A stretch of DNA of 23,831 nt from Promethearchaeota archaeon (GCA_016926735.1 JAFGOA010000114.1:1-23831), one strand, 5' to 3'; counted from the first letter of the stretch, positions 2,570 through 13,605 are shown. The notes: generated by a model from the letters alone, not told the origin. Program-made: numbers and translations.

Positions 2570-2653
2570 ATGAGACAAATAGAGTGTACCACTCTAACTT
2601 TTGGATTTAAGCCCAAGACAGGGCAAACATTTAACACTGGTTATAAAAATTAA
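2570..2653 (+). CDS. Putative Thr/Lys-rich leader peptide of asd (MRQIECTTLTFGFKPKTGQTFNTGYKN)
   Basis: ATG at 2570 (another in-frame ATG at 2564) to TAA 2651-2653. Has 6 Thr and 3 Lys in 27 aa and lies 240 nt upstream of asd, followed by a C/T-rich tract. Confidence 0.55.
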   Translation: MRQIECTTLTFGFKPKTGQTFNTGYKN

Positions 2654-2893
2654 TCCAATTAAAATCGTCTCTATCGCCTTTTCTATTGTTTTCCGATCTT
2701 TTATTACTTTCAAATCATCACACTTTACCACATGAGATGATTTTATTTAACGATTATTTTTTTATAAAAGAAGATCTATGTAGAGATTTATCGATAATAA
2801 AAGATTTAAAGGGACTTAGTTCAATTAAGGGTCTGTCTAAGCAACTCAGAGGCACAGAACTTAAATTCAATAGACTTTTTATAATAAATAATC

Positions 2894-3985
2894 ATGGAAA
2901 AGATTAATATTGGTATATTAGGAGCTACTGGAATTATTGGTCAAAATTACATCAAATTACTGCAGGATCATCCTTGGTTTCAAATTACAGATCTAGCAGC
3001 ATCTCTTCAATCTGCAGGAAAATCATTTATAGAAGCTGTAAAACATAAATGGCAAATGTCAATACCTATTCCTGAAGAATTAAAAAACTTGATTGTAAGA
3101 GATGTTAAAGATTTTGATTCTATTCCTGAAAATGTTAGTTTTGTGTTTTCTGCTATTAATATGCCATCAAAAGAACAAGTAAAAGAAGTAGAACTAAGAT
3201 ATGCCAAAAATGAAATTCCCGTCGTTAGTAATAACTCTGCACACCGAATGACTTCAGATGTTCCTATGATTATAGGTGAAATAAATCATTCTCATGTCAA
3301 TGTAATTCCTATTCAAAAAAAAAATAGAGAATTCAACAAGGGATTTATTGTAGTAAAACCTAATTGTACTGTTCAAAGTTATCTTACACCAATATATGCT
3401 TTAGAAAAAGCTGGTTATAAAATTGAAAAGTTAATTATTACCACTTTAAATGCACTCTCTGGCGCAGGGTATCCTGGAGTTGCGTCATTGGATATCATAG
3501 ATAATATCATACCTTATGTAGGTGATGGAGAGGAGGAAAAAACTGAGATTGAACCTCATAAAATACTAGGAAAAATAGGTGATAATGGGATCATAAACAA
3601 TGATTCTATCAAAATTAGCGTCACTTCAACAAGGGTACCTATTGTAGATGGTCATACAGCATGTGTTTCTGTAAAATTTAGAGATCAAATACCATCAAAA
3701 GATGAAATTATTAGAATATGGAATGAATTTAAATCACTTCCTCAAGAACTTGATTTACCATTTGCCCCTAAACAACCAATTATATTTTTAGAAAATATTG
3801 ATCGACCTCAACCAAGAAAAGATAGAGATAATGATAAAGGTATGGCAATTTCTGTAGGAAGATTAAGAAAAGACTCAATCTTTGATTATAAATTTATTGG
3901 ATTAAGTCATAATACTATTAGAGGTGCTGCTGGTGGAGCAATTTTAAATGCAGAACTTTTAAAATCTCAAGGATTCATTTCCTAA
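2894..3985 (+). CDS. asd: Aspartate-semialdehyde dehydrogenase (archaeal/fungal type)
   Basis: GATGIIGQ Rossmann motif, SNNSAHRM, catalytic PNC, ALSGAGYPG, RVPIVDGH and HNTIRGAAGGAILNAE. Confidence 0.97.
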   Translation: MEKINIGILGATGIIGQNYIKLLQDHPWFQITDLAASLQSAGKSFIEAVKHKWQMSIPIPEELKNLIVRDVKDFDSIPENVSFVFSAINMPSKEQVKEVELRYAKNEIPVVSNNSAHRMTSDVPMIIGEINHSHVNVIPIQKKNREFNKGFIVVKPNCTVQSYLTPIYALEKAGYKIEKLIITTLNALSGAGYPGVASLDIIDNIIPYVGDGEEEKTEIEPHKILGKIGDNGIINNDSIKISVTSTRVPIVDGHTACVSVKFRDQIPSKDEIIRIWNEFKSLPQELDLPFAPKQPIIFLENIDRPQPRKDRDNDKGMAISVGRLRKDSIFDYKFIGLSHNTIRGAAGGAILNAELLKSQGFIS

Positions 3986-3999: not shown

Positions 4000-5274
4000 T
4001 TATTTTAAATAGAATTCTGTGTCATCTTGATTAAATTCTCCAGTGATTTCTCCTTTCCCTATTAAATCAAATATAATTCCTATAATTTTGTCTGGCTCAA
4101 TTTTTAAAAATCGTTGAATATAATCAATTTTAACATTTTTCTTTACTTTAATTATTCCTAATATTCTATCTTCAAAATTAACTTTCTCAATTTCTTCAAT
4201 TAATCCTTGCTTTTTTTTGGAATAATGAGTATCGAATTTATCTGAGGAAATTTCTTTTTGGTCTACATATGAGGATTCTTTTTTCATTACATTATCCTCA
4301 TATTTAATACTTTCATTTTTAATTTCAGTGTTCATTAATGAATTTTCTTCTATTTGAGCTTCATTAATTTTAATTGATTGTTCGAGTAAGGGACTTTTCT
4401 CCATTAACGTTCCTATTAACGGGGTAGATTCATAACTTAATTCTAAAACTTCTGCTAAAATCCTGATCATTCTATCACGATTTTCATTACGATTAGCAAC
4501 CATGGGATAGGTTATCAACCCTAATTCTTTTTCAATATCTTTTATATCCATGGCTCCTTTTAAATCCTGTTTATTTCCTATAACTGCTGATCTTGCATAT
4601 GGAACTTCCTTTTCTATTAAATCAATAAAAAATTTGCTTTTTTCTATATTATTTAAAGTTGAATCTGTGATAACTAAAACACCATCGCTACCCTTTATAA
4701 AACTCTTCCATAAATAACGAAATTGTTCCTGGCCTGCAAAATCAAAAAGATTAAAAAATAGATCTCCAATCTTGATTGTTGCGATATCTCCAGTAATAGT
4801 TGGGATATGATAAGTAGGGATTTTATCAAGTTTTATTAGTTGTTTTGTGGTTGTTTTTCCTACACCTGAGAAACCAACAATAGATATCTTTGGTTTTAAT
4901 TTTCTATGGAGAGGATCTGCAATTGAATTTATAATATCAGTTTGGTCTTGTGTTAATTTATCATGTATTTGGTTAAAATTAACCTTATCAAATACTTCTT
5001 GTTTGAAAAGAGCTAGTTCTGGTTTAATAGTACTAAAATAATCATCTACTAACCCTGTAATAAATAGAAAAATTAATTCTTTTTCTATATCAACATCATA
5101 TGATACTCTAAACTTAAAATAATCAAAATGATCTGTATTCTTTTCAATTCTCCTTTTAAGTATTTGCCATATTTTATAGCTGAGATCTTCTATTTCTGAA
5201 TCTGATAAAGCATTGCTAAAATATCTTTTGTATAGAAAATCATTTTTTTTTAAAATTATAATCTGCCTTAACAT
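4000..5274 (-). CDS. Asgard small GTPase fusion: longin-like N-terminal domain, Arf-like GTPase, C-terminal winged-helix/PCI-like domain
   Basis: G1 GFSGVGKTT, G2 PTI, G3 DFAGQ, G4 NKQD. About 125-aa N-terminal beta-beta-alpha domain. C-terminal IFDLIGKGEITGEF resembles a winged helix. Confidence 0.85.
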   Translation of the reverse strand: MLRQIIILKKNDFLYKRYFSNALSDSEIEDLSYKIWQILKRRIEKNTDHFDYFKFRVSYDVDIEKELIFLFITGLVDDYFSTIKPELALFKQEVFDKVNFNQIHDKLTQDQTDIINSIADPLHRKLKPKISIVGFSGVGKTTTKQLIKLDKIPTYHIPTITGDIATIKIGDLFFNLFDFAGQEQFRYLWKSFIKGSDGVLVITDSTLNNIEKSKFFIDLIEKEVPYARSAVIGNKQDLKGAMDIKDIEKELGLITYPMVANRNENRDRMIRILAEVLELSYESTPLIGTLMEKSPLLEQSIKINEAQIEENSLMNTEIKNESIKYEDNVMKKESSYVDQKEISSDKFDTHYSKKKQGLIEEIEKVNFEDRILGIIKVKKNVKIDYIQRFLKIEPDKIIGIIFDLIGKGEITGEFNQDDTEFYLK

Positions 5275-6829: not shown

Positions 6830-6988
6830 ATGACAGAATGTCCAACTTGTGGGAAAGATACTGTAGTAGAAGTCACTTCTGGTAGTTCTAGCACTTGGGG
6901 TTTTTGGTGTTTGAAATGTAATAGTAAATGGTTAGTGAAGTTAGGAAGACGTGAATCAATAGATACCTTATGGTATAAAATTGAATAA
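6830..6988 (+). CDS. Small zinc-ribbon protein (CPxCG type), 52 aa: MTECPTCGKDTVVEVTSGSSSTWGFWCLKCNSKWLVKLGRRESIDTLWYKIE
   Basis: ATG 6830 to TAA 6986-6988, CPTC…CLKC knuckles, TATA-like TTTTAATA at 6797-6804, downstream oligo-T at about 6997-7013. Below the ORF-track size cutoff. Confidence 0.75.
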   Translation: MTECPTCGKDTVVEVTSGSSSTWGFWCLKCNSKWLVKLGRRESIDTLWYKIE

Positions 6989-7085: not shown

Positions 7086-7157
7086 AACATCCGGTGGGAT
7101 TTGAACCCACAATTGATTGCTTCGAAGGCAATTGTCCTATCATTAGACGACGGATGC
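7086..7157 (-). tRNA. trnR: tRNA-Arg(UCG)
   Basis: Acceptor GCATCCG/CGGATGT; anticodon arm ATTGC-CT TCG AA-GCAAT; T arm GTGGG-TTCAAAT-CCCAC. Confidence 0.9.
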
Positions 7158-7181
7158 ATGTTTTAAATCAATAATTTTTAA

Positions 7182-7255
7182 AGAGTCAGAGGGGATTCGA
7201 ACCCCTGAAATAGACGGTTAAGAGCCGCCTGCCTTAACCTCTTGGCTACTGACTC
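7182..7255 (-). tRNA. trnK: tRNA-Lys(CUU)
   Basis: Acceptor GAGTCAG/CTGACTC; anticodon arm GGCGG-CT CTT AA-CCGTC; T arm AGGGG-TTCGAAT-CCCCT. Confidence 0.92.
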
Positions 7256-7348
7256 GTTTCTGATCCTAATCATTAAATTGGAAATTTTATTTTTTAATTT
7301 CTACATCTTTTTTTTTGAATTGGTAATTTCTTAGTTATAAACAATTGA

Positions 7349-7424
7349 TAGGGATGGTGAGATTCGAACTCACGACCTTCGCTTTATAAGAACGATGATC
7401 TCTAAACCACTAATCTACACCCCC
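7349..7424 (-). tRNA. trnI: tRNA-Ile(UAU)
   Basis: Acceptor GGGGGTG/CATCCCT-A; anticodon arm TCGTT-CT TAT AA-AGCGA; T arm GTGAG-TTCGAAT-CTCAC. Close paralog of the Ile(GAU) gene at 8044. Confidence 0.9.
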
Positions 7425-7520
7425 ATTTTTATTATATTTATTCCATGGAATTAAAATGTGCAATTGATTGTTTAGAATATAATAATTCAATTATTTACCA
7501 CATTCGATGATATTAATTAA

Positions 7521-7596
7521 TAGAGGTGTTGGGATTTGAACCCAAGTTTTCCGGCACATGAAACCGACGTCTTCCACCAAGCTAGACCACACCCCT
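7521..7596 (-). tRNA. trnM: tRNA with CAU anticodon (Met; A1:U72, atypical)
   Basis: Acceptor AGGGGTG/CACCTCT-A; anticodon arm TCGGT-TT CAT GT-GCCGG; T arm TTGGG-TTCAAAT-CCCAA. Confidence 0.8.
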
Positions 7597-7607
7597 ATTA
7601 TTATTGA

Positions 7608-7678
7608 TGGGAGTAATTGGATTTGAACCAATGCTACTGGGTTTGGAATCCAGTCTAATTCTCCTATATTATACTCCC
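7608..7678 (-). tRNA. trnW: tRNA-Trp(CCA), intron-less, weak D arm
   Basis: Acceptor GGGAGTA/TACTCCC-A; anticodon arm CTGGA-TT CCA AA-CCCAG with an A·C mismatch; T arm ATTGG-TTCAAAT-CCAAT. Confidence 0.78.
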
Positions 7679-7692
7679 ATTCTTTCTAAAGA

Positions 7693-7765
7693 TAGGAGAG
7701 GTAGGAATCGAACCTACGAAAACCTCCTTGTAAGGGAGGGACAATAGCCGCTATGTGACTCCCCT
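7693..7765 (-). tRNA. trnV: tRNA-Val(UAC)
   Basis: Acceptor AGGGGAG/CTCTCCT-A; anticodon arm CCTCC-CT TAC AA-GGAGG; T arm GTAGG-TTCGATT-CCTAC. Confidence 0.9.
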
Positions 7766-7777
7766 AAATCTAAAATA

Positions 7778-7849
7778 TACACCCAGTAGGATTTGAACCT
7801 ACATTTTATTGCTTAGAAGGCAATTGTCCTTTCATTAGACGATGGGTGT
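7778..7849 (-). tRNA. trnR: tRNA-Arg(UCU)
   Basis: Acceptor ACACCCA/TGGGTGT-A; anticodon arm ATTGC-CT TCT AA-GCAAT; T arm GTAGG-TTCAAAT-CCTAC. Confidence 0.9.
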
Positions 7850-7873
7850 TTATTTTATTCTAATTTTAAATAA

Positions 7874-7946
7874 AGAGTCAGAGGGGGTTTGAACCCCTGA
7901 AATCGGCGGTTAAAGGCCGCTTGCTTTACCACTTAGCTACTGACTC
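7874..7946 (-). tRNA. trnK: tRNA-Lys(UUU), with C33
   Basis: Acceptor GAGTCAG/CTGACTC; anticodon arm (A)GCGG-CC TTT AA-CCGC(C); T arm AGGGG-TTCAAAC-CCCCT. Confidence 0.87.
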
Positions 7947-8043
7947 TTATTTATTTTTCATATTCTCTCAATATTTTATTACAATAATTTTCATCTTTAT
8001 CTCCTTTACTATTTGACCTCTCATTCTTGATTAATATTTAAAT

Positions 8044-8122
8044 TGGTAGGGATGGTGAGATTCGAACTCACGGCCTACGCTTTATCAGAACGTTGATCTT
8101 TAACCCCCTGATCTACATCCCC
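8044..8122 (-). tRNA. trnI: tRNA-Ile(GAU), with encoded 3' CCA
   Basis: Acceptor GGGGATG/CATCCCT-A-CCA; anticodon arm ACGTT-CT GAT AA-AGCGT; T arm GTGAG-TTCGAAT-CTCAC. Confidence 0.93.
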
Positions 8123-8209
8123 TTATTTTTTATCTTCACACATCCTGTGATATAGTCTTATTCTTGCTTCTATTATCTTTTTTCTAATAAAATACTTCTT
8201 ATATTTTAA

Positions 8210-8311
8210 TGGAGTTGATAGGACTCGAACCTATGCCCTCTCGAATTTCAATTTCGACCATCTCATATAAGAATGATTGTCGAAGGTCCTTCCCCATTAG
8301 ACGACAACTCC
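8210..8311 (-). tRNA. trnF: tRNA-Phe(GAA) with a 28-nt intron at position 32/33 (intron 8251-8278)
   Basis: Acceptor GGAGTTG/CAACTCC-A. BHB-type motif TTCG-ACA-ATCAT…ATGGT-CGAA-ATT. Splicing gives TTCGA-CT GAA AT-TCGAG. T arm ATAGG-TTCGAGT-CCTAT. Confidence 0.88.
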
Positions 8312-8321
8312 TTGATTTAAA

Positions 8322-8393
8322 CGCTCCTAGTATGATTCGAACATACGCCACACTGGGTAACAACCAGGAACACTACCACTATGCTATAGGAGC
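8322..8393 (-). tRNA. trnN: tRNA-Asn(GUU)
   Basis: Acceptor GCTCCTA/TAGGAGC-G; anticodon arm (C)CTGG-TT GTT AC-CCAG(T); T arm GTATG-TTCGAAT-CATAC. Confidence 0.9.
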
Positions 8394-8511
8394 ATAATTT
8401 TATATCTAATTCTATGATATGAAAGTAATTTTTCGAAGAATTATATAGTAAAGGGATAAGAAGTCAAATCATAAGGTAAATCGTTGTTTCTGAAGGAATT
8501 TATGGATATAA

Positions 8512-8589
8512 TTATCGTTTAAATCGATGCATTTTAATAATATTTACAAAATGCCAATTCATCCTTATCATAAATATACGATTGACCAT
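8512..8589 (-). CDS. Putative leader peptide of tRNA array 1 (MVNRIFMIRMNWHFVNIIKMHRFKR)
   Basis: ATG at 8589, 30 nt after TTTAAATA (8619-8612, - strand), stop TAA at 8514-8512. 23 of 25 residues are amino acids with a tRNA in the downstream array, and all eight are present. Confidence 0.65.
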   Translation of the reverse strand: MVNRIFMIRMNWHFVNIIKMHRFKR

Positions 8590-8611
8590 AATATTATCAA
8601 TGCATGTTATA

Positions 8612-8619
8612 TATTTAAA
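8612..8619 (-). promoter_or_regulatory. Candidate TATA box of the leader + tRNA array 1 transcript
   Basis: TTTAAATA on the - strand with an A-rich upstream stretch (GCAAAATA), at leaderless-mRNA spacing from ATG 8589. Confidence 0.55.
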
Positions 8620-8645
8620 TATTTTGCTAGAATATATTCTTATCA

Positions 8646-8691
8646 TTAAAATGGGAAAAGAATGGGCAAGATTGGAAGGAGAATTTAAATA
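8646..8691 (+). promoter_or_regulatory. Repeated upstream motif TTAAAATGGGAAAAGAATGGGCAA plus TATA (TTTAAATA, 8684), copy 1
   Basis: 22/24 identical to 12046-12069, with the same +33 offset from the first ATGGG to a TATA box. Confidence 0.6.
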
Positions 8692-8811
8692 TCTTAGATT
8701 CTTTTCTTAATAACAATAATATAAAATTTAAGAATGATCTTAAGTTACATAGGCGTATAAGTGAGATCTATTATATTATGATATAATTCAAAAATTTATA
8801 AAAAAAGTGTA

Positions 8812-11800
8812 ATGAATGAAAAAAAGATAAATGAATATATTACCCTACGATTAGAAAATAGAGATACAAATATTTACATCAATGAAGAGCTTTTTATTCA
8901 ATGTAAATATCTTCTTTTAAATATTTCCCTTGAAGATGTGCATGAATATGAGGAAATTGGTTCTATTGATGAAGCTGTTGAGAGACTAAATCATGATTTG
9001 GAATTTGGTAATAAATATTCAATAAAACCTGAAACTGAATTTTGGGCTCATTGCTCTAATTTGCAAGTATGGGTAGAACATGATTATGATACTCGAATTC
9101 TACATAGTAACTTATCATTTCCATTACTAAGAAAATTAAGTGAAATTGGAGATCCAAAAGCTAATAGGATATTTAAAGATGAAATAATAAGTAGACTTGA
9201 GAGTAAATATATCCCTGTTATCAGATATCTTATTATTCAAGGATATATGGAGTATTTTACAAAAGAGGAGTTAGATATTATTTATGAAAATCTAGGATTA
9301 GACTATGTAACTGTTCATAATGAAAAAATACCCATTTTGGAGAATGAATTAGATTTATATGGAAAAGAAATAGAAAATATCAATGAAATCATTGGTCTTA
9401 AAAATATTAAAATTTTAAAACTTTCTATTCATGATAATCATATTTCAAGCATAGAAGGACTAGAACATCTAACAAATTTAGAAAGTCTAGATCTAGGGGC
9501 AAATAACATTACTGAGATAAAAAATCTTGATTCTCTAATTAATTTGAAACAATTATTTTTAGACTATAATAATATCGATGAAATTAAAGGATTAGATAAA
9601 TGTAAGGAACTTAAAATGTTAAGAATCTCTGGAAACAAAATTAAAGAAATTAATGGATTGATTGAACTTCATAATCTTAATACTTTAGACCTTCGAGTAA
9701 ATAATATAACATCCACTAAAGGAATAGAAAATCTAAAATTTTTAAAAGACTTAGATCTTTCAAGCAATAAAATTAGTGAATTAGAAGGAATAGCGAAACT
9801 TGAACATCTTGAATCCTTAGATCTTGGAAGCAATCTTATAAGAGAAGTTAAAAATTTGAAAGATCTAAATAAATTAAAACAATTAAATCTAAATAATAAT
9901 AAAATAAGAGATATAAGTTACATAGGGAAGTTGAGTAATCTTGAAAAATTGGATCTTTATAATAATCAAATTATTAAAATCAAGGGTTTGGAGAATTTAA
10001 AAAACTTAAAAATTTTAGAATTATCAAATAATAATATTAAAGAAATACAAAATCTAGATCATTTTACACATTTAGAAATACTTCGACTTACACATAATTC
10101 CATTTCAGAAATTAAGAACTTATCCTTTCTAACCAATCTAAAAGAACTTTATCTCTCTGATAATAAAATTGATGAAATTAAAGAATTAAACAATCTAAAA
10201 AAACTAAATACACTTGCTTTAGAATATAATATAATCACTGAAATTAAAGAAGTATCTCATCTTATAAACTTAGAGCGTTTATACCTTGCTTATAATAGAA
10301 TTAATAACATAAAGGAATTAGATAACTTTTCAAAACTAGAAACTCTTCTTTTAGGTTATAATAAAATAAATAAAATTGATGGCCTCTCTAAACTAACTAA
10401 TCTTACAACATTGAATCTTATTGGTAATGAGATAAAAAGAATTGAAAATCTAGATACATTGAATAAATTAATTAATTTAAACTTAGACTTTAATAAAATT
10501 CAAATTATTGAAGGATTAGATAAATTAATAAATCTCATTTATTTACACTTAAATCATAATCAAATAAAAGAAATTCAAGAATTAGATACCTTAGCAGAAT
10601 TAAATAGTCTTTATCTTAATAATAATTGTATTTCAGAAATTAAAGGATTAGAAAATCTTTCAAAATTACTATATTTATCCCTCACTAATAATAAAATATC
10701 TAAAATTCAAGGTTTAGATAATCTTAAACAATTAACTAATTTATATCTTGATAATAATCAAATTATGAAATTAGAAAACTTGAATAATTTAATAAATGTG
10801 ACTTCTTTAAGTTTTTCATCAAATTTTATTGAAGAAATCAATAGTTTGGATAAACTTAAAAAAATTAGTTATCTTAATTTTCAAAATAACAAAATTAAAC
10901 ATATTAAAGGGTTAAATAAACTAAAATTTCTAAGTTCAGTTACATTAACAGATAATCATATTTCAAATGTCCAAGGATTAGAGAATTTAGAAAATTTAAT
11001 AAGTCTATATTTGGGTAAAAATAACATTAAAATGATTAATGGTCTAGATGAATTAAAAAAATTAGAGAAATTAGATCTTTCATACAATAAAATTAAAGAA
11101 ATAAAAGGTATTCAAAATTTATTAGAACTACATTATTTATATTTATCTTCAAATCAAATAACTGAAATTAAAAATTTAGCCCTCTTAAAAAAATTAGATA
11201 CTTTAGATCTTTCAAATAATAAAATTACTAAAATACAAAATTTAGAGCATCTAATTAATCTAAATTATCTTTTCCTTTCCAAAAATATTATATCTAAAAT
11301 TCAAAATTTAGATTCATTAACTAAATTGAGAGAATTATATCTTAGTTCAAATAGGATAAAAAAGATAGAAAATATAGAAAAGTTATCAAATTTATTTTAT
11401 CTAATTCTCAATAATAATAAAATTACCGAAATTGAGAATTTAAAATCTTCTAAAGAACTAATAAAATTAAATTTATCACATAATCAGATTTCAAAATTAA
11501 CTAATCCTCAAAATCTTTTAAATTTAATTGAGCTTGACCTTTCAAATAATAAAATTAGTGAATTTAATGATATAGGTTGTTTAAATCTTACAACATTAAA
11601 TCTCGAAAATAATTTAATCAAAGAGATCAAAAACCTTGATAATTTAAATTATTTAGAAATTTTAAATCTTTCTGAAAACCAAATTAGTGAAATAATGAAT
11701 TTGGATCTATTAATAGATTTAACAACACTTAATATTTCTAAAAATCAAATTATTGAAATAAAAGGATTAGAAAAATTGACGCAACTTCAGTATTTAAAGA

Positions 11801-11907
11801 TATATGGGAATCAAATCTCATATAGACTTATAGAACAATTAGGTGGTTATAATGATGATGATAATGCAGCCATAATTGAAAATTTTATTGATTATTGTTC
11901 TGGATGA
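8812..11907 (+). CDS. Large leucine-rich-repeat protein (SDS22/internalin-like) with Lokiarchaeia-type N-terminal domain
   Basis: N-terminal PETEFWAHCSNLQVWVEHDYDTRILHSNLSFPLL domain, then roughly 37 22-aa repeats of the form LxxLxLxxNxIxxIxxL. Confidence 0.9.
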   Translation: MNEKKINEYITLRLENRDTNIYINEELFIQCKYLLLNISLEDVHEYEEIGSIDEAVERLNHDLEFGNKYSIKPETEFWAHCSNLQVWVEHDYDTRILHSNLSFPLLRKLSEIGDPKANRIFKDEIISRLESKYIPVIRYLIIQGYMEYFTKEELDIIYENLGLDYVTVHNEKIPILENELDLYGKEIENINEIIGLKNIKILKLSIHDNHISSIEGLEHLTNLESLDLGANNITEIKNLDSLINLKQLFLDYNNIDEIKGLDKCKELKMLRISGNKIKEINGLIELHNLNTLDLRVNNITSTKGIENLKFLKDLDLSSNKISELEGIAKLEHLESLDLGSNLIREVKNLKDLNKLKQLNLNNNKIRDISYIGKLSNLEKLDLYNNQIIKIKGLENLKNLKILELSNNNIKEIQNLDHFTHLEILRLTHNSISEIKNLSFLTNLKELYLSDNKIDEIKELNNLKKLNTLALEYNIITEIKEVSHLINLERLYLAYNRINNIKELDNFSKLETLLLGYNKINKIDGLSKLTNLTTLNLIGNEIKRIENLDTLNKLINLNLDFNKIQIIEGLDKLINLIYLHLNHNQIKEIQELDTLAELNSLYLNNNCISEIKGLENLSKLLYLSLTNNKISKIQGLDNLKQLTNLYLDNNQIMKLENLNNLINVTSLSFSSNFIEEINSLDKLKKISYLNFQNNKIKHIKGLNKLKFLSSVTLTDNHISNVQGLENLENLISLYLGKNNIKMINGLDELKKLEKLDLSYNKIKEIKGIQNLLELHYLYLSSNQITEIKNLALLKKLDTLDLSNNKITKIQNLEHLINLNYLFLSKNIISKIQNLDSLTKLRELYLSSNRIKKIENIEKLSNLFYLILNNNKITEIENLKSSKELIKLNLSHNQISKLTNPQNLLNLIELDLSNNKISEFNDIGCLNLTTLNLENNLIKEIKNLDNLNYLEILNLSENQISEIMNLDLLIDLTTLNISKNQIIEIKGLEKLTQLQYLKIYGNQISYRLIEQLGGYNDDDNAAIIENFIDYCSG

Positions 11908-12045
11908 TTGTTTTACATCTATCTCTAAAAAAGGCTACTTTTTATTTTAATAAATTTTTTATTTTTCAATTTTAAATAGATATCAAATTAAAAAGGTATC
12001 TAAATATATTTTTCTTAACTTTAATACTCATTTAAATTAAAAAGC

Positions 12046-12091
12046 TTAATATGGGAAAAGAATGGGTAATTTTGAGCGAAATCTTTATATA
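12046..12091 (+). promoter_or_regulatory. Repeated upstream motif TTAATATGGGAAAAGAATGGGTAA plus BRE/TATA (GCGAAATC-TTTATATA, 12084), copy 2; promoter of tRNA array 2
   Basis: Strong TATA with a purine-rich BRE-like stretch, motif shared with 8646-8669, and ATG 33 nt after the TATA start. Confidence 0.65.
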
Positions 12092-12116
12092 TATATGGTA
12101 TAATATAAATTATAAC

Positions 12117-12218
12117 ATGAGACGAGTATATTATGTGGGAACTTTTACCCCACAACCAAATACAGAAGCGGACCCTACAGATCAGGGTGCCCAATATAGC
12201 GAATGCTATAGATATTAA
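12117..12218 (+). CDS. Putative leader peptide of tRNA array 2 (MRRVYYVGTFTPQPNTEADPTDQGAQYSECYRY)
   Basis: ATG 12117 to TAA 12216-12218. 24 of 33 residues (24 of 29 after codon 4) are A/Q/Y/D/G/T/C/E/P. It has no Leu, Ile or Lys despite the AT-rich genome. Confidence 0.65.
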   Translation: MRRVYYVGTFTPQPNTEADPTDQGAQYSECYRY

Positions 12219-12330
12219 AGTATTTGAATTCTTGTCTGTCGCTTTCTTCAATCTCTTTAACTTTAAATTCTACTTGCTTCATATAATAAATCAAAATTCT
12301 CAGATGAGTAGATTCAATAACTTTATAAAA

Positions 12331-12401
12331 AGGTGAGTAGTGTAATAGTAGCATTGGAGTCTGTGAAGCTTCAGGTGGTGGTTCAAATCCTCCCTCACCT
12401 T
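12331..12401 (+). tRNA. trnH: tRNA-His(GUG), atypical (no G-1/C73)
   Basis: Acceptor AGGTGAG/CTCACCT-T; anticodon arm GGAGT-CT GTG AA-GCTTC; T arm GGTGG-TTCAAAT-CCTCC with a T·T mismatch; D loop lacks GG. Confidence 0.78.
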
Positions 12402-12480
12402 CTATAATGAGTATCAAATAAGAAAAATCAAGAGAAAGCACTATAAGGACGGTTTGAAAAAAGCTTACGTTAATATAAAT

Positions 12481-12553
12481 GGGGCTGTAGTTTAATTGGA
12501 AAAATTAACAGTTTTGCAAATTGTTGCTGTGGGTTCAAATCCTACCAGCTCCA
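12481..12553 (+). tRNA. trnA: tRNA-Ala(UGC)
   Basis: Acceptor GGGGCTG/CAGCTCC-A with the G3·U70 Ala determinant; anticodon arm ACAGT-TT TGC AA-ATTGT. Confidence 0.9.
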
Positions 12554-12563
12554 CTAAAATCAT

Positions 12564-12637
12564 ACCCCCGTCGTCCAGTGGACAAGGACGCCTGACCTTG
12601 GATCAGAAAACGCAGGTTCGAATCCTGCCGTGGGGTA
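12564..12637 (+). tRNA. trnQ: tRNA-Gln(UUG), with C33 and a 1-nt acceptor-stem bulge
   Basis: Acceptor ACCCCCG/CG(T)GGGGT-A; D arm GTCC…GGAC; anticodon arm (C)CTGA-CC TTG GA-TCAG(A); T arm GCAGG-TTCGAAT-CCTGC. Confidence 0.82.
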
Positions 12638-12661
12638 TCCTTTAAATAAATGATATAAAAT

Positions 12662-12733
12662 CGGACCGTAGCGTAATGGTATCGCAACAGACCGTAGATC
12701 TGGAGATTGCTGGTTCAAATCTGGCCGGTCCGA
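12662..12733 (+). tRNA. trnY: tRNA-Tyr(GUA), with C33, intron-less
   Basis: Acceptor CGGACCG/CGGTCCG-A (archaeal/eukaryotic C1:G72, A73); anticodon arm (A)CAGA-CC GTA GA-TCTG(G); short variable arm. Confidence 0.88.
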
Positions 12734-12742
12734 TTAATAATT

Positions 12743-12813
12743 GGGGCTCTGGTGTAGCGGTAGCAAAGAGGGCTGTCGCCTCTCTGGTGGGGGTTCAATT
12801 CCCCCGTGTCCCG
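12743..12813 (+). tRNA. trnD: tRNA-Asp(GUC)
   Basis: Acceptor GGGGCTC/GTGTCCC-G; anticodon arm GAGGG-CT GTC GC-CTCTC; T arm GGGGG-TTCAATT-CCCCC. Confidence 0.87.
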
Positions 12814-12835
12814 TTGATTGGAAAAGTAATATAAA

Positions 12836-12911
12836 GCGAGATTACTGTAGTTAGGTTAAGCAGCATCGCCTTCCAAGTGAATGAGGGAGGGTTCAAATCC
12901 CTCATCTCGCA
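12836..12911 (+). tRNA. trnG: tRNA-Gly(UCC)
   Basis: Acceptor GCGAGAT/ATCTCGC-A; anticodon arm (A)TCGC-CT TCC AA-GTGA(A); T arm GAGGG-TTCAAAT-CCCTC. Confidence 0.88.
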
Positions 12912-12919
12912 TTAAAAAA

Positions 12920-12994
12920 GCCCCCATAGCATAGTTAGGATAATGCAGCTTCCTTGTAAGTAGCAGATCGTGGGTTCGAATCCCATTAGGGGCT
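12920..12994 (+). tRNA. trnT: tRNA-Thr(UGU)
   Basis: Acceptor GCCCCCA/TAGGGGC-T; anticodon arm GCTTC-CT TGT AA-GTAGC; T arm GTGGG-TTCGAAT-CCCAT. Confidence 0.88.
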
Positions 12995-13047
12995 TTATTT
13001 TGGAAATAAAGACGAGATATATATTATAAAAATAAACAAATAAAAAT

Positions 13048-13120
13048 GCACGTGTGGCTGAGAGGATTAAGCAGGAAAATGCAAATTTCTGAAACACAGG
13101 TTCAAATCCTGTCGCGTGCT
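13048..13120 (+). tRNA. trnC: tRNA-Cys(GCA)
   Basis: Acceptor GCACGTG/CGCGTGC with U73 (Cys determinant); anticodon arm GGAAA-AT GCA AA-TTTCT; T arm ACAGG-TTCAAAT-CCTGT. Confidence 0.9.
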
Positions 13121-13151
13121 TTAAAAAAAATAAAAAAAGAGTGAATAAAAA

Positions 13152-13361
13152 TTGATAGATTTGTGTTTACAAAAAGACATTTTGATTGTAAAAATAAAAA
13201 AAAAGGCTTCAAAATTAGGAAAATTATATTTAGACATAATGATGGAAGGAGAATCTAATGATTCTAAAGGAAAATCTATTCATTTAGCAATATTTAAGCA
13301 GGATAATGATGTGTTTCTAGAATCAAATATGCTAACTATGATTATAAATGAGAATATTTAA
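13152..13361 (+). CDS. Small hypothetical protein inside tRNA array 2
   Basis: 69-codon frame (TTG start, GAGTGA upstream) that fills most of the Cys-Glu spacer in the array's orientation. No recognisable motif. Confidence 0.4.
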   Translation: MIDLCLQKDILIVKIKKKASKLGKLYLDIMMEGESNDSKGKSIHLAIFKQDNDVFLESNMLTMIINENI

Positions 13362-13371
13362 TTTTTTTTTT

Positions 13372-13446
13372 GCTCCTGTCTTTCTAATTGGTTAAGGATG
13401 TTCGACTTTCAATTGAACGATGTGGGTTCAAATCCCGCCAGGAGCT
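13372..13446 (+). tRNA. trnE: tRNA-Glu(UUC)
   Basis: Acceptor GCTCCTG/CAGGAGC; anticodon arm TTCGA-CT TTC AA-TTGAA; T arm GTGGG-TTCAAAT-CCCGC. Confidence 0.88.
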
Positions 13447-13532
13447 TTATCACTTTATGTAATAAATATTATTTACACATACAGTTTTGGATTATTAAAC
13501 AGGAAATGAATTATTATTAAAGATAGCAATGA

Positions 13533-13605
13533 GGGAGTGTAATGTAGTGGTTAGCATCCAAGCTTTGGAAGTTTGTTATCGAAGGTTCAAATCCTTCCAC
13601 TCCTA
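13533..13605 (+). tRNA. trnP: tRNA-Pro(UGG)
   Basis: Acceptor GGGAGTG/CACTCCT-A; anticodon arm CAAGC-TT TGG AA-GTTTG; T arm GAAGG-TTCAAAT-CCTTC. Confidence 0.88.

Follow-up and report, generated by a model that had tools for sequence, protein, structure and literature searches.

The closest described counterparts of the locus considered here are the bacterial long transfer RNA (tRNA) arrays ('L-arrays'), such as the trn operon of Anabaena PCC 7120, which comprises 26 genes (PMC8421152), and the archaeal tRNA gene clusters, which the survey by Morgado and Vicente (2019, PMC6333295) reports only from Halobacteria and Methanobacteria. Some of these archaeal clusters lie on plasmid- or provirus-like contigs, and the same survey cites a haloarchaeal tailed virus with 36 tRNAs (PMC6333295). 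The locus itself occupies positions 7086 to 13605 of a 23,831-nucleotide (nt) stretch of DNA from a Promethearchaeota archaeon (GCA_016926735.1, JAFGOA010000114.1:1-23831), referred to below at its full length as the window, and consists of tRNA genes in two divergent arrays. These are interpreted, with confidence that is moderate and better than even, as the halves of a self-contained accessory tRNA cassette, supernumerary to a full housekeeping set, for one arm of which regulation is proposed.

Like the L-arrays, the cassette has at least 20 densely packed genes for nearly all amino acids, is supernumerary and patchily distributed, and divides the tRNA complement into an everyday set and an extra one. 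Unlike them, it encodes archaeal-type tRNAs in an Asgard host, runs in both directions from a central spacer, is non-redundant with only U34 in its four-codon boxes, and has in its spacer a leader-like RNA of a kind that also accompanies an operon for amino-acid biosynthesis. Furthermore, L-arrays are silent in normal growth and induced under translational stress; for the Asgard cassette, induction would be a prediction. With the clusters of Halobacteria and Methanobacteria it shares archaeal-type tRNAs beyond the normal set; it differs in its Loki-type Asgard host, in having no adjacent mobile-element genes, and in being a defined cassette across three genera. The arrays of large phages and haloarchaeal viruses (PMC10264068) are similarly compact, near-complete, AT-richer and faster-evolving than host genes, with odd anticodon loops. 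In contrast to these, no viral genes adjoin the cassette, which sits among ordinary chromosomal neighbours on contigs of up to 281 kb, and no viral or plasmid hallmark genes were found in the flanks searched.

Organelles and mollicutes possess minimal tRNA sets that rely on U34 'superwobble'. The cassette resembles these in having one U34 tRNA per four-codon box, G34 for NNY codons, about 26 species and a very AT-rich genome; yet there the minimal set is the only one, while here it coexists with a full archaeal G34/U34/C34 set. Full-text searches, together with the archaeal cluster survey (PMC6333295), yielded no report of arrays of this kind from any Asgard archaeon, and the word 'array' is absent from a 2026 preprint on Asgard tRNA introns. 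What appears to be new is twofold: the union of the window arrays with a third array, on contig C42, in one bidirectional cassette that is patchy within one family and differently flanked in most carriers; and a cassette that is structurally selected yet fast-evolving, partly losable, and equipped with a leader-like RNA shared with asd/dapA.

The window is the entire contig C157 of genome G000, a 3.88-Mb assembly in 238 contigs (completeness 99.3%, contamination 4.8%, GC 26%), and has the same GC content as the genome at large. Pfam searches of 14 open reading frames (ORFs) identified SRP19, ribosomal protein S8e, HypA, asd and a WD40 protein, as well as two Arf/Roc GTPases and three leucine-rich repeat (LRR) proteins. 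The contig is thus chromosomal and Asgard-like, as had been claimed in an earlier reading of the sequence by itself (hereafter the original prediction). Genes for tRNA were called with ARAGORN, which counted 20, and with Rfam model RF00005, for which 21 genes, scoring 46-66 bits, exceed the gathering threshold; the additional gene is the intron-bearing Phe-GAA. They are arranged as follows, each array in its gene order.

7086-8394, minus strand: array A, 11 tRNA genes (ARAGORN and RF00005)
8321-8394, minus strand: Asn-GTT, first gene of array A
8210-8311, minus strand: Phe-GAA, with a 28-nt intron
8044-8122, minus strand: Ile-GAT
7873-7947, minus strand: Lys-TTT
7778-7849, minus strand: Arg-TCT
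7691-7766, minus strand: Val-TAC
7606-7679, minus strand: Trp-CCA
7520-7597, minus strand: Met-CAT
7347-7425, minus strand: Ile-TAT
7182-7255, minus strand: Lys-CTT
7086-7157, minus strand: Arg-TCG, last gene of array A
12331-13605, plus strand: array B, 10 tRNA genes (ARAGORN and RF00005)
12331-12402, plus strand: His-GTG, first gene of array B
12481-12554, plus strand: Ala-TGC
12564-12636, plus strand: Gln-TTG
12661-12734, plus strand: Tyr-GTA
12742-12814, plus strand: Asp-GTC
12836-12911, plus strand: Gly-TCC
12919-12995, plus strand: Thr-TGT
13048-13120, plus strand: Cys-GCA
13372-13446, plus strand: Glu-TTC
13533-13605, plus strand: Pro-TGG, last gene of array B

The original prediction had described this locus in some detail, and its description agrees with the gene calls point by point. 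Rfam recovers all 21 genes in two divergent arrays that have no amino acid in common; 18 amino acids are covered, with Leu and Ser missing from the window; U34 is the sole anticodon type in all six four-codon boxes present, and NNY boxes have G34. Introns and encoded CCA ends are nearly absent (one gene of 21 each, Phe and Ile-GAT respectively), the array tRNAs are AT-rich (mean GC 0.49, against 0.57-0.63 in seven intron-less dispersed tRNAs of the same genome), and searches of the window with Pfam (the 14 ORFs) and with PHROGs and NCBIfam (five small or unknown ORFs) revealed neither an integrase nor a viral hallmark gene. The one soft point is the statement that T loops are 'mostly' TTCAAAT, which by manual reading applies to 11 of the 21 genes, a bare majority. 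Since 21 of the 49 Rfam tRNA matches in the assembly fall within 6.5 kb, the clustering is far above chance, and two blocks of 1.3 kb each, with 21 genes in all, reach the density of about 20 or more head-to-tail genes by which L-arrays are recognized.

The remaining Rfam matches comprise five on contig C42 and 23 elsewhere in the genome. Those on C42 stand in a row and constitute the Leu/Ser array whose existence outside the window had been predicted:

C42:7266-7742: Leu/Ser array, Ser-GCT, Ser-TGA, Leu-CAA, Leu-TAA and Leu-TAG

With its addition the arrays total 26 genes for all 20 amino acids, only one of which has an intron. By ordinary wobble, these 26 tRNAs read 85% of the codon usage of 1,281 long ORFs of the genome; the other 15% or so are NNU and NNC codons of four-codon boxes, which are readable only if U34 reads all four codons. 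The cassette would then provide roughly one tRNA per codon family, and the whole code could be read provided that U34 decodes in this manner.

Comparison with relatives shows how the three arrays belong together. Genomes G000-G003 form genus g1, and genera g5 (which includes G138-G141) and g6 (which includes G050) belong to the same family of 131 genomes. In DNA searches within g1, array A is matched at 93% in G003 and, in pieces, at 72-87% in G001, with no array-length match in G002; array B is matched at 94% in G003, 69% in G001 and 72-79% in G002, and the Leu/Ser array in all three at 75-96%. Rfam counts (up to 128 scored candidates) gave 36-52 tRNAs in the four g1 genomes, compared with 15-30 in 12 other genomes of the family. 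A first reading, that the arrays are confined to one genus, was overturned when a wider Rfam count (up to 37 scored candidates per genome) led to homologous cassettes in G050 and in G138-G141. The cassette of G138 is intact, with all 27 genes within 3.0 kb of a 281-kb contig:

G138, strand one: Ser-GCT, Ser-TGA, Leu-CAA, Leu-TAG, Leu-TAA, Lys-TTT, Ile-TAT, Arg-TCG, Met, Trp, Arg-TCT, Val, Lys-CTT, Ile-GAT, Phe, Asn; then a spacer of about 590 nt
G138, other strand: His, Ala, Gln, Tyr, Asp, Gly, Thr, Cys, Glu-CTC, Glu-TTC, Pro

The same succession of modules (Leu/Ser, array A, spacer, array B) is found in G050, G139, G140 and G141. The gene order of array B is identical in the window and in G001, G002, G003, G050, G138, G140 and G141, and the gene set of array A recurs in G003, G001, G050 and G138-G141, its order in G138 being slightly shuffled relative to the window. 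In genus g1 the Leu/Ser module lies on a separate contig, where it adjoins a host tRNA-Pro(GGG) gene. The two arrays of the window and the array on C42 are thus best read as fragments of a single conserved, bidirectional cassette of about 3 kb with 26-27 tRNAs. This relation goes beyond what the original prediction had seen, the two arms being split in the window by an LRR gene.

The degree of relatedness is reflected in the mean identity of like tRNAs to those of G000, which falls from 0.97 in G003 through 0.81 in G002, 0.77 in G001 and 0.69 in G050 to 0.66-0.67 in the g5 cassettes (G138-G141). Four dispersed host tRNAs have a mean identity of 0.61 to their array counterparts in G000. Arrays in G116 and G124, each at 0.59, are therefore regarded as unrelated, since they are no closer than this background level. 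Of the 131 family genomes, nine have array-length matches to the cassette of G050 (four of four in g1, four of ten in g5, one of six in g6). The flanks are ordinary host genes, common only to G138 and G139; the g1 locus, G050, G140 and G141 each have distinct flanks of their own, and G015, from a sister genus, retains the WD40/isochorismatase pair that neighbours the window arrays, with no tRNA within 16 kb. Searches with Pfam, PHROGs and NCBIfam of the flanks in the window, C42, G050, G138, G140 and G141 detected no integrase, capsid, terminase or relaxase gene, and for a cassette so patchily distributed neither mobile-element genes nor a donor for its spread was found. The patchiness may reflect either horizontal transfer or an ancient origin with many losses.

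Within genus g1 the locus has been rearranged repeatedly, and its non-tRNA components are as follows.

8395-8669, minus strand: left half of the spacer, with a TATA-like box at about 8607-8624, some 220 nt upstream of Asn
8670-12045, plus strand: inserted segment of 3.4 kb, containing an LRR gene at 8812-11907 (1031 amino acids; LRR domains by Pfam)
12046-12116, plus strand: right half of the spacer, with a TATA-like box at about 12083-12099, some 25-30 nt upstream of a structured RNA
12117-12238, plus strand: structured RNA, a closing helix with three hairpins, followed by a T-rich tract, with tRNA-His 93 nt further on

The LRR gene lies between the arms in both G000 and G001, and its segment is bounded by a direct repeat of about 24 nt (8645-8668 and about 12046-12069). 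Contig L033, a 1.9-kb metagenomic contig related to G003, joins window position 8669 to 12046 across this repeat. The segment therefore represents an insertion into the spacer, or a deletion in L033, and the LRR gene is accordingly read as an insertion or deletion polymorphism. In G002, the GTPase gene is followed by a remnant of about 80-110 nt of the LRR gene 3' end, the right spacer half with its structured RNA, and array B. Because this remnant remains between the GTPase and array B, a deletion of about 5 kb must have removed the whole of array A, and DNA searches of the G002 assembly (98% complete) did not find array A elsewhere. In G003 (L012:2180-2254) and in L033 (1445-1519), the Asp slot of array B carries anticodon GTT (Asn) in place of GTC; GTT in an Asp-type body corresponds to an anticodon switch by a single C-to-T change. 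Together, the LRR polymorphism, the deletion of array A and the Asp anticodon switch point to a dynamic cassette that can do without at least one of its arms.

Several smaller features adjoin the cassettes. In the window, an ORF at 6830-6988 (plus strand), which follows Arg-TCG, encodes a 52-residue zinc-ribbon protein that is kept in G003 and has a sub-threshold likeness to the Lar type. Another, at 13239-13361 (plus strand), encodes 40 residues between the Cys and Glu genes and is conserved in G003 (82%) and G001 (60%); in the g5 cassettes its position is occupied by Glu-CTC. An N6/N4 DNA methylase gene abuts the G138 cassette (L069:11343-12266) and lies about 2.5 kb from that of G140, which a LAGLIDADG endonuclease gene abuts (these two genes near the G140 cassette are at L071:1600-2676 and 8245-9120), and a NYN-domain gene (L070:9193-10278) stands about 1 kb from the cassette of G141. 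The unrelated array of G116 (L037:53-1494, on G116:C135, a 3.2-kb contig) packs 18 tRNA genes into 1.45 kb with spacers of 2-10 nt, and follows the same U34/G34 anticodon logic in a different gene order. In G124, a virus-like contig of 15.2 kb (L038, G124:C80) has 16 tRNA genes among small same-strand ORFs, which include an HNH endonuclease, a RyR-domain protein, DUF4352 and ARPP-1, and a Leu/Phe mini-array lies at the end of another contig (L039:5639-6080, G124:C26).

Whether the cassette is accessory depends on what else the genome encodes. Since Rfam and ARAGORN overlook tRNA genes with several introns, three extra scans were made: one for paired acceptor and T arms, one that applied a hidden Markov model to tRNA 3' ends, and one that targeted particular anticodon arms. 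These bring the dispersed tRNA genes of G000 to at least 42, of which 35 have one to three introns. The dispersed set has the usual archaeal G34/U34/C34 anticodon pattern and matches 19 of the 21 window anticodons. It includes an initiator tRNA on C69 (A1:U72, with a GGG:CCC anticodon stem), a Tyr gene on C108 that has C1:G72, an Ala-TGC gene on C116 downstream of the 16S rRNA gene, and a His gene with two introns on C50; a dispersed Ser-GCT copy was not found by the four different scans of G000.

A separate canonical set, on which the original prediction had made its case turn, thus exists. Its opposite, that the arrays are the main or only genes for these anticodons and hence the housekeeping set itself, could appeal to the well-formed tRNAs, to the chromosomal context, and to the lack of dispersed Asn-GTT and Thr-TGT genes in the scans. 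Yet dispersed copies exist for 19 of the 21 anticodons and for the initiator, 122 of the 131 family genomes have no array-length match to the cassette, array A was deleted in G002, and the array genes change faster than the dispersed ones. For a housekeeping operon, with the only copies of its genes and conserved in relatives, the observations are the reverse of what would be expected; this interpretation is largely refuted and retains hardly any probability. The term 'accessory second set' is instead well suited to a cassette that accompanies a canonical set, has its Leu/Ser array on C42, is missing from most relatives and has lost array A in one of them.

The same inventory raises the possibility of a take-over in progress, in which housekeeping genes laden with introns are giving way to the intron-free cassette: splicing is needed by 35 of the 42 dispersed genes, as against one of the 26 in the cassette, and two anticodons were found in arrays only. 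The dispersed genes look intact, however, and are conserved between sister genomes, and it was array A rather than the dispersed genes that the G002 lineage lost. A take-over is accordingly judged very unlikely.

The dispersed genes have peculiarities of their own. Seven of them possess an intron of about 30 nt in the T loop, were overlooked or shortened by Rfam and ARAGORN, and were each checked for a 3' exon that follows; several have further introns.

C8:2830-2933: Lys-CTT
C227:832-936: Arg-CCT
C153:44277-44440: Arg-GCG
C188:51502-51706: Leu-TAA
C7:2752-2932: Ile-TAT
C144:7237-7341: Asp-GTC
C192:30660-30826: Phe-GAA

A probable tRNA-Sec, with anticodon TCA, a long variable arm and introns, lies at C7:184-336. 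Three 3' halves resembling tRNA-Met, all on one small contig (C96, minus strand, about 1226-1248, 2767-2790 and 4610-4637), may be attachment-site repeats of an integrated element, and two tRNA-like sequences with aberrant anticodon arms (C62:359-432 and 628-693; Rfam 39 and 35 bits) lie 200 nt apart. The ARAGORN intron-mode calls Tyr-ATA, Phe-AAA, Asn-ATT and 'Pyl' were considered wrong or doubtful and left unused. For annotation, this means that standard tools find the array genes readily and overlook much of the true housekeeping set, so that tRNA counts in these metagenome-assembled genomes are misleading.

A comparison of the arrays of G000 and G001 reveals the manner in which the cassette genes evolve. 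Among stem pairs, 311 are unchanged, 67 have changed on both sides and still pair, 43 have changed on one side and still pair, and 27 are broken; among unpaired positions, 188 of 746 have changed. As stem changes preserve pairing (110 kept, 27 broken), selection on the cloverleaf is indicated rather than decay. At the same time, array tRNAs are 77% identical between these two genomes, while four dispersed orthologues are 88-100% identical over aligned pieces, introns included; the array genes evolve faster than housekeeping tRNA genes.

These data bear directly on the suggestion that the arrays are dead cargo, left behind by a virus or plasmid that once integrated, with tRNA genes that have fallen out of use. 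A patchy distribution with flanks that differ between most genomes would suit such an origin, as would the DNA methylase or LAGLIDADG endonuclease gene beside some copies, the lower GC and anticodon-loop oddities of the array tRNAs, and the existence in the family of an unrelated contig, that of G124, which is virus-like and encodes 16 tRNAs together with an HNH endonuclease and a RyR-domain protein. Nevertheless, pair-preserving stem changes outnumber breaks by 110 to 27, three genera have kept the gene order, the TATA boxes and the spacer RNA, and the flanks examined gave no integrase or capsid gene. Moreover, two exact tRNA-derived patterns had no match in IMG/VR, and when both arrays were compared with GenBank phages by blastn, the matches were confined to single tRNA-like stretches of about 70-100 nt. 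Dead cargo is therefore regarded as decidedly unlikely.

Nor do the tRNAs look foreign to an archaeon. By manual reading, archaeal identity features include C1:G72 and a short variable arm in Tyr, A73 in Trp, A1:U72 in Met and Gln, and G3:U70 in Ala, and the Phe intron appears to be of the protein-spliced type. The array tRNAs are accordingly classed, from these features, as archaeal rather than bacterial in type. Of 18 dispersed copies with readable 3' ends, 14 share their discriminator base with the array gene, again by manual reading.

The central spacer is the second conserved component of the cassette. An alignment of five spacers from three genera contains two conserved, outward-facing TATA-like boxes about 95 nt apart, and the LRR insertion site falls between them. 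The left box is the putative promoter of array A, and the right box is likewise a putative promoter. The structured RNA behind the right box measures 107-122 nt across cassettes and has fold z-scores of -3.5 to -5.4 in seven of seven sequences; RNAalifold on a MAFFT alignment retains only the closing helix, one full hairpin and half of another, and hairpin 1 is supported by single-sequence folds only. It matches no Rfam family. A protein-coding reading of the spacer was rejected: two ORFs (12133-12336, plus strand, and 12175-12441, minus strand) overlap the structure, and because the ATG is not conserved outside genus g1, the element is read as RNA.

A covariance model built from nine cassette copies (R1) scores 83-111 bits in all nine cassette genomes, which are its own training set. 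It also finds diverged full-length copies, at 39-50 bits, in G051, G146, G130, G059 and at a second locus of G050, with no tRNA within about 3 kb of any of them. Four of these (G051, G146, G050 and G130) lie on the same strand as, and directly upstream of, dapA-asd or asd, in shared synteny and each with its own TATA-like box. The asd-linked RNAs, of about 105 nt, are conserved in several genera of the family, likewise have no Rfam counterpart, and are located at:

L073:3386-3491
L074:3135-3240, minus strand
L075:3299-3404
L076:3061-3165, minus strand

They represent a candidate archaeal leader or riboswitch related to amino acids; among the matches listed, a literature search gave no paper linking Asgard archaea with an asd riboswitch. 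The window appears to hold a host copy in the corresponding place:

2570-2671, plus strand: probable host copy of the structured RNA, about 220 nt upstream of asd (2894-3985, plus strand)

G002 has a copy at the same place upstream of asd that scores 36.5 bits with R1. In a search of the whole G000 genome, R1 recognized the cassette copy alone among 150 of 2032 candidates scored. In a joint alignment of cassette and host copies (A3), 93% of cells are paired, in comparison with 30-54% in slid controls, and five pairs change on both sides. The cassette RNA is thus a paralogue of the leader-like RNA of the asd/dapA operon, and as a leader should, it has a conserved structure and lies between a putative promoter and the genes downstream, on the same strand.

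From these components a mode of action can be proposed. In the ancestral form, the arms would be transcribed outward from the spacer of about 590 nt with its two TATA boxes. The tightly spaced genes (7-24 nt apart) would presumably give polycistronic precursors to be cut by RNase P and RNase Z, and the products would be charged by host synthetases. Because the His-first arm sits behind a paralogue of the asd/dapA operon leader, its expression is probably conditional. The likely benefit would be extra tRNAs for A/U-ending codons that are independent of tRNA splicing. The accessory set is judged to be both selected and dispensable; it is probably regulated, and its expression is predicted. Of the original interpretation as an accessory and inducible second set on an Asgard chromosome, the chromosome and the accessory second set are upheld, by the dispersed genes and by the array on C42, and inducibility is kept in the weaker form of probable regulation.

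A number of observations weigh against the interpretation as a functional accessory cassette. The discriminator base differs from that of the host copy in Lys (U for G), Arg-TCG (U for A) and Glu (U for A), and probably also in His, so charging by host enzymes is not assured. In the window, Lys-UUU, Gln-UUG and Tyr-GUA have C33 instead of U33, the array Met carries G37, the Gln acceptor stem is bulged by manual reading, and Trp has stem mismatches; decay of some array genes is possible. For dispersed genes with introns, the anticodons come from manual reading rather than from a dedicated archaeal tool, and dispersed Asn-GTT and Thr-TGT genes were not found by four different scans of the 238-contig G000 assembly; for these two anticodons the arrays could be the only source, or copies could have been overlooked by the scans or the assembly. 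The host copy of the structured RNA in the window is a weak R1 match (17 bits, E 0.07, filters off), and it is position by itself that suggests an attenuator or riboswitch role for the leader-like RNA. Finally, two metatranscriptome contig sets from the same study gave four tiny matches on LRR repeats and none on the arrays, an outcome that says little either way, and among sequencing-run records no RNA run containing the stretch was found.

The anticodon-loop anomalies also raise a more specific possibility. PrrC, zymocin-type toxins and colicin E5 classically attack Lys-UUU, Gln-UUG, Tyr-GUA and Asp-GUC tRNAs. Across the nine cassettes, U33 is missing from 22 of 211 tRNAs, and 17 of these 22 are tRNAs of precisely these four kinds; several cassette tRNAs have G at position 32, and the cassette evolves fast. 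Variant tRNAs of this sort might serve as a nuclease-proof back-up, surviving the anticodon nucleases of viruses, toxin-antitoxin systems or rival cells that destroy housekeeping tRNAs, much as PMC10264068 proposes that phage tRNA arrays outlast anticodon-nuclease cleavage of host tRNAs. However, the nuclease is hypothetical, C33 and U33 alternate among close relatives with no known correlate, and dispersed loops were compared by eye only. The oddities fit relaxed constraint and selection for altered loops alike, and a nuclease-proof role is considered unlikely. Equally doubtful is the bolder proposal of a portable, regulated 'emergency translation kit', which would combine a splicing-free minimal set, a riboswitch-like switch in the form of the asd/dapA leader, and C33/G32 loops that escape nucleases; if true, the kit would parallel, in an archaeal cell, the tRNA arrays that phages use for counter-defence.

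Under the preferred interpretation of a supernumerary accessory cassette, two classes of tRNA occur in one cell, with different processing needs, different evolutionary rates and probably different regulation. This offers a concrete system for asking why tRNA introns persist. The cassette likewise bears on how supernumerary tRNA arrays spread and what purpose they have, and on whether archaeal leader RNAs jointly control amino-acid biosynthesis and translation capacity.

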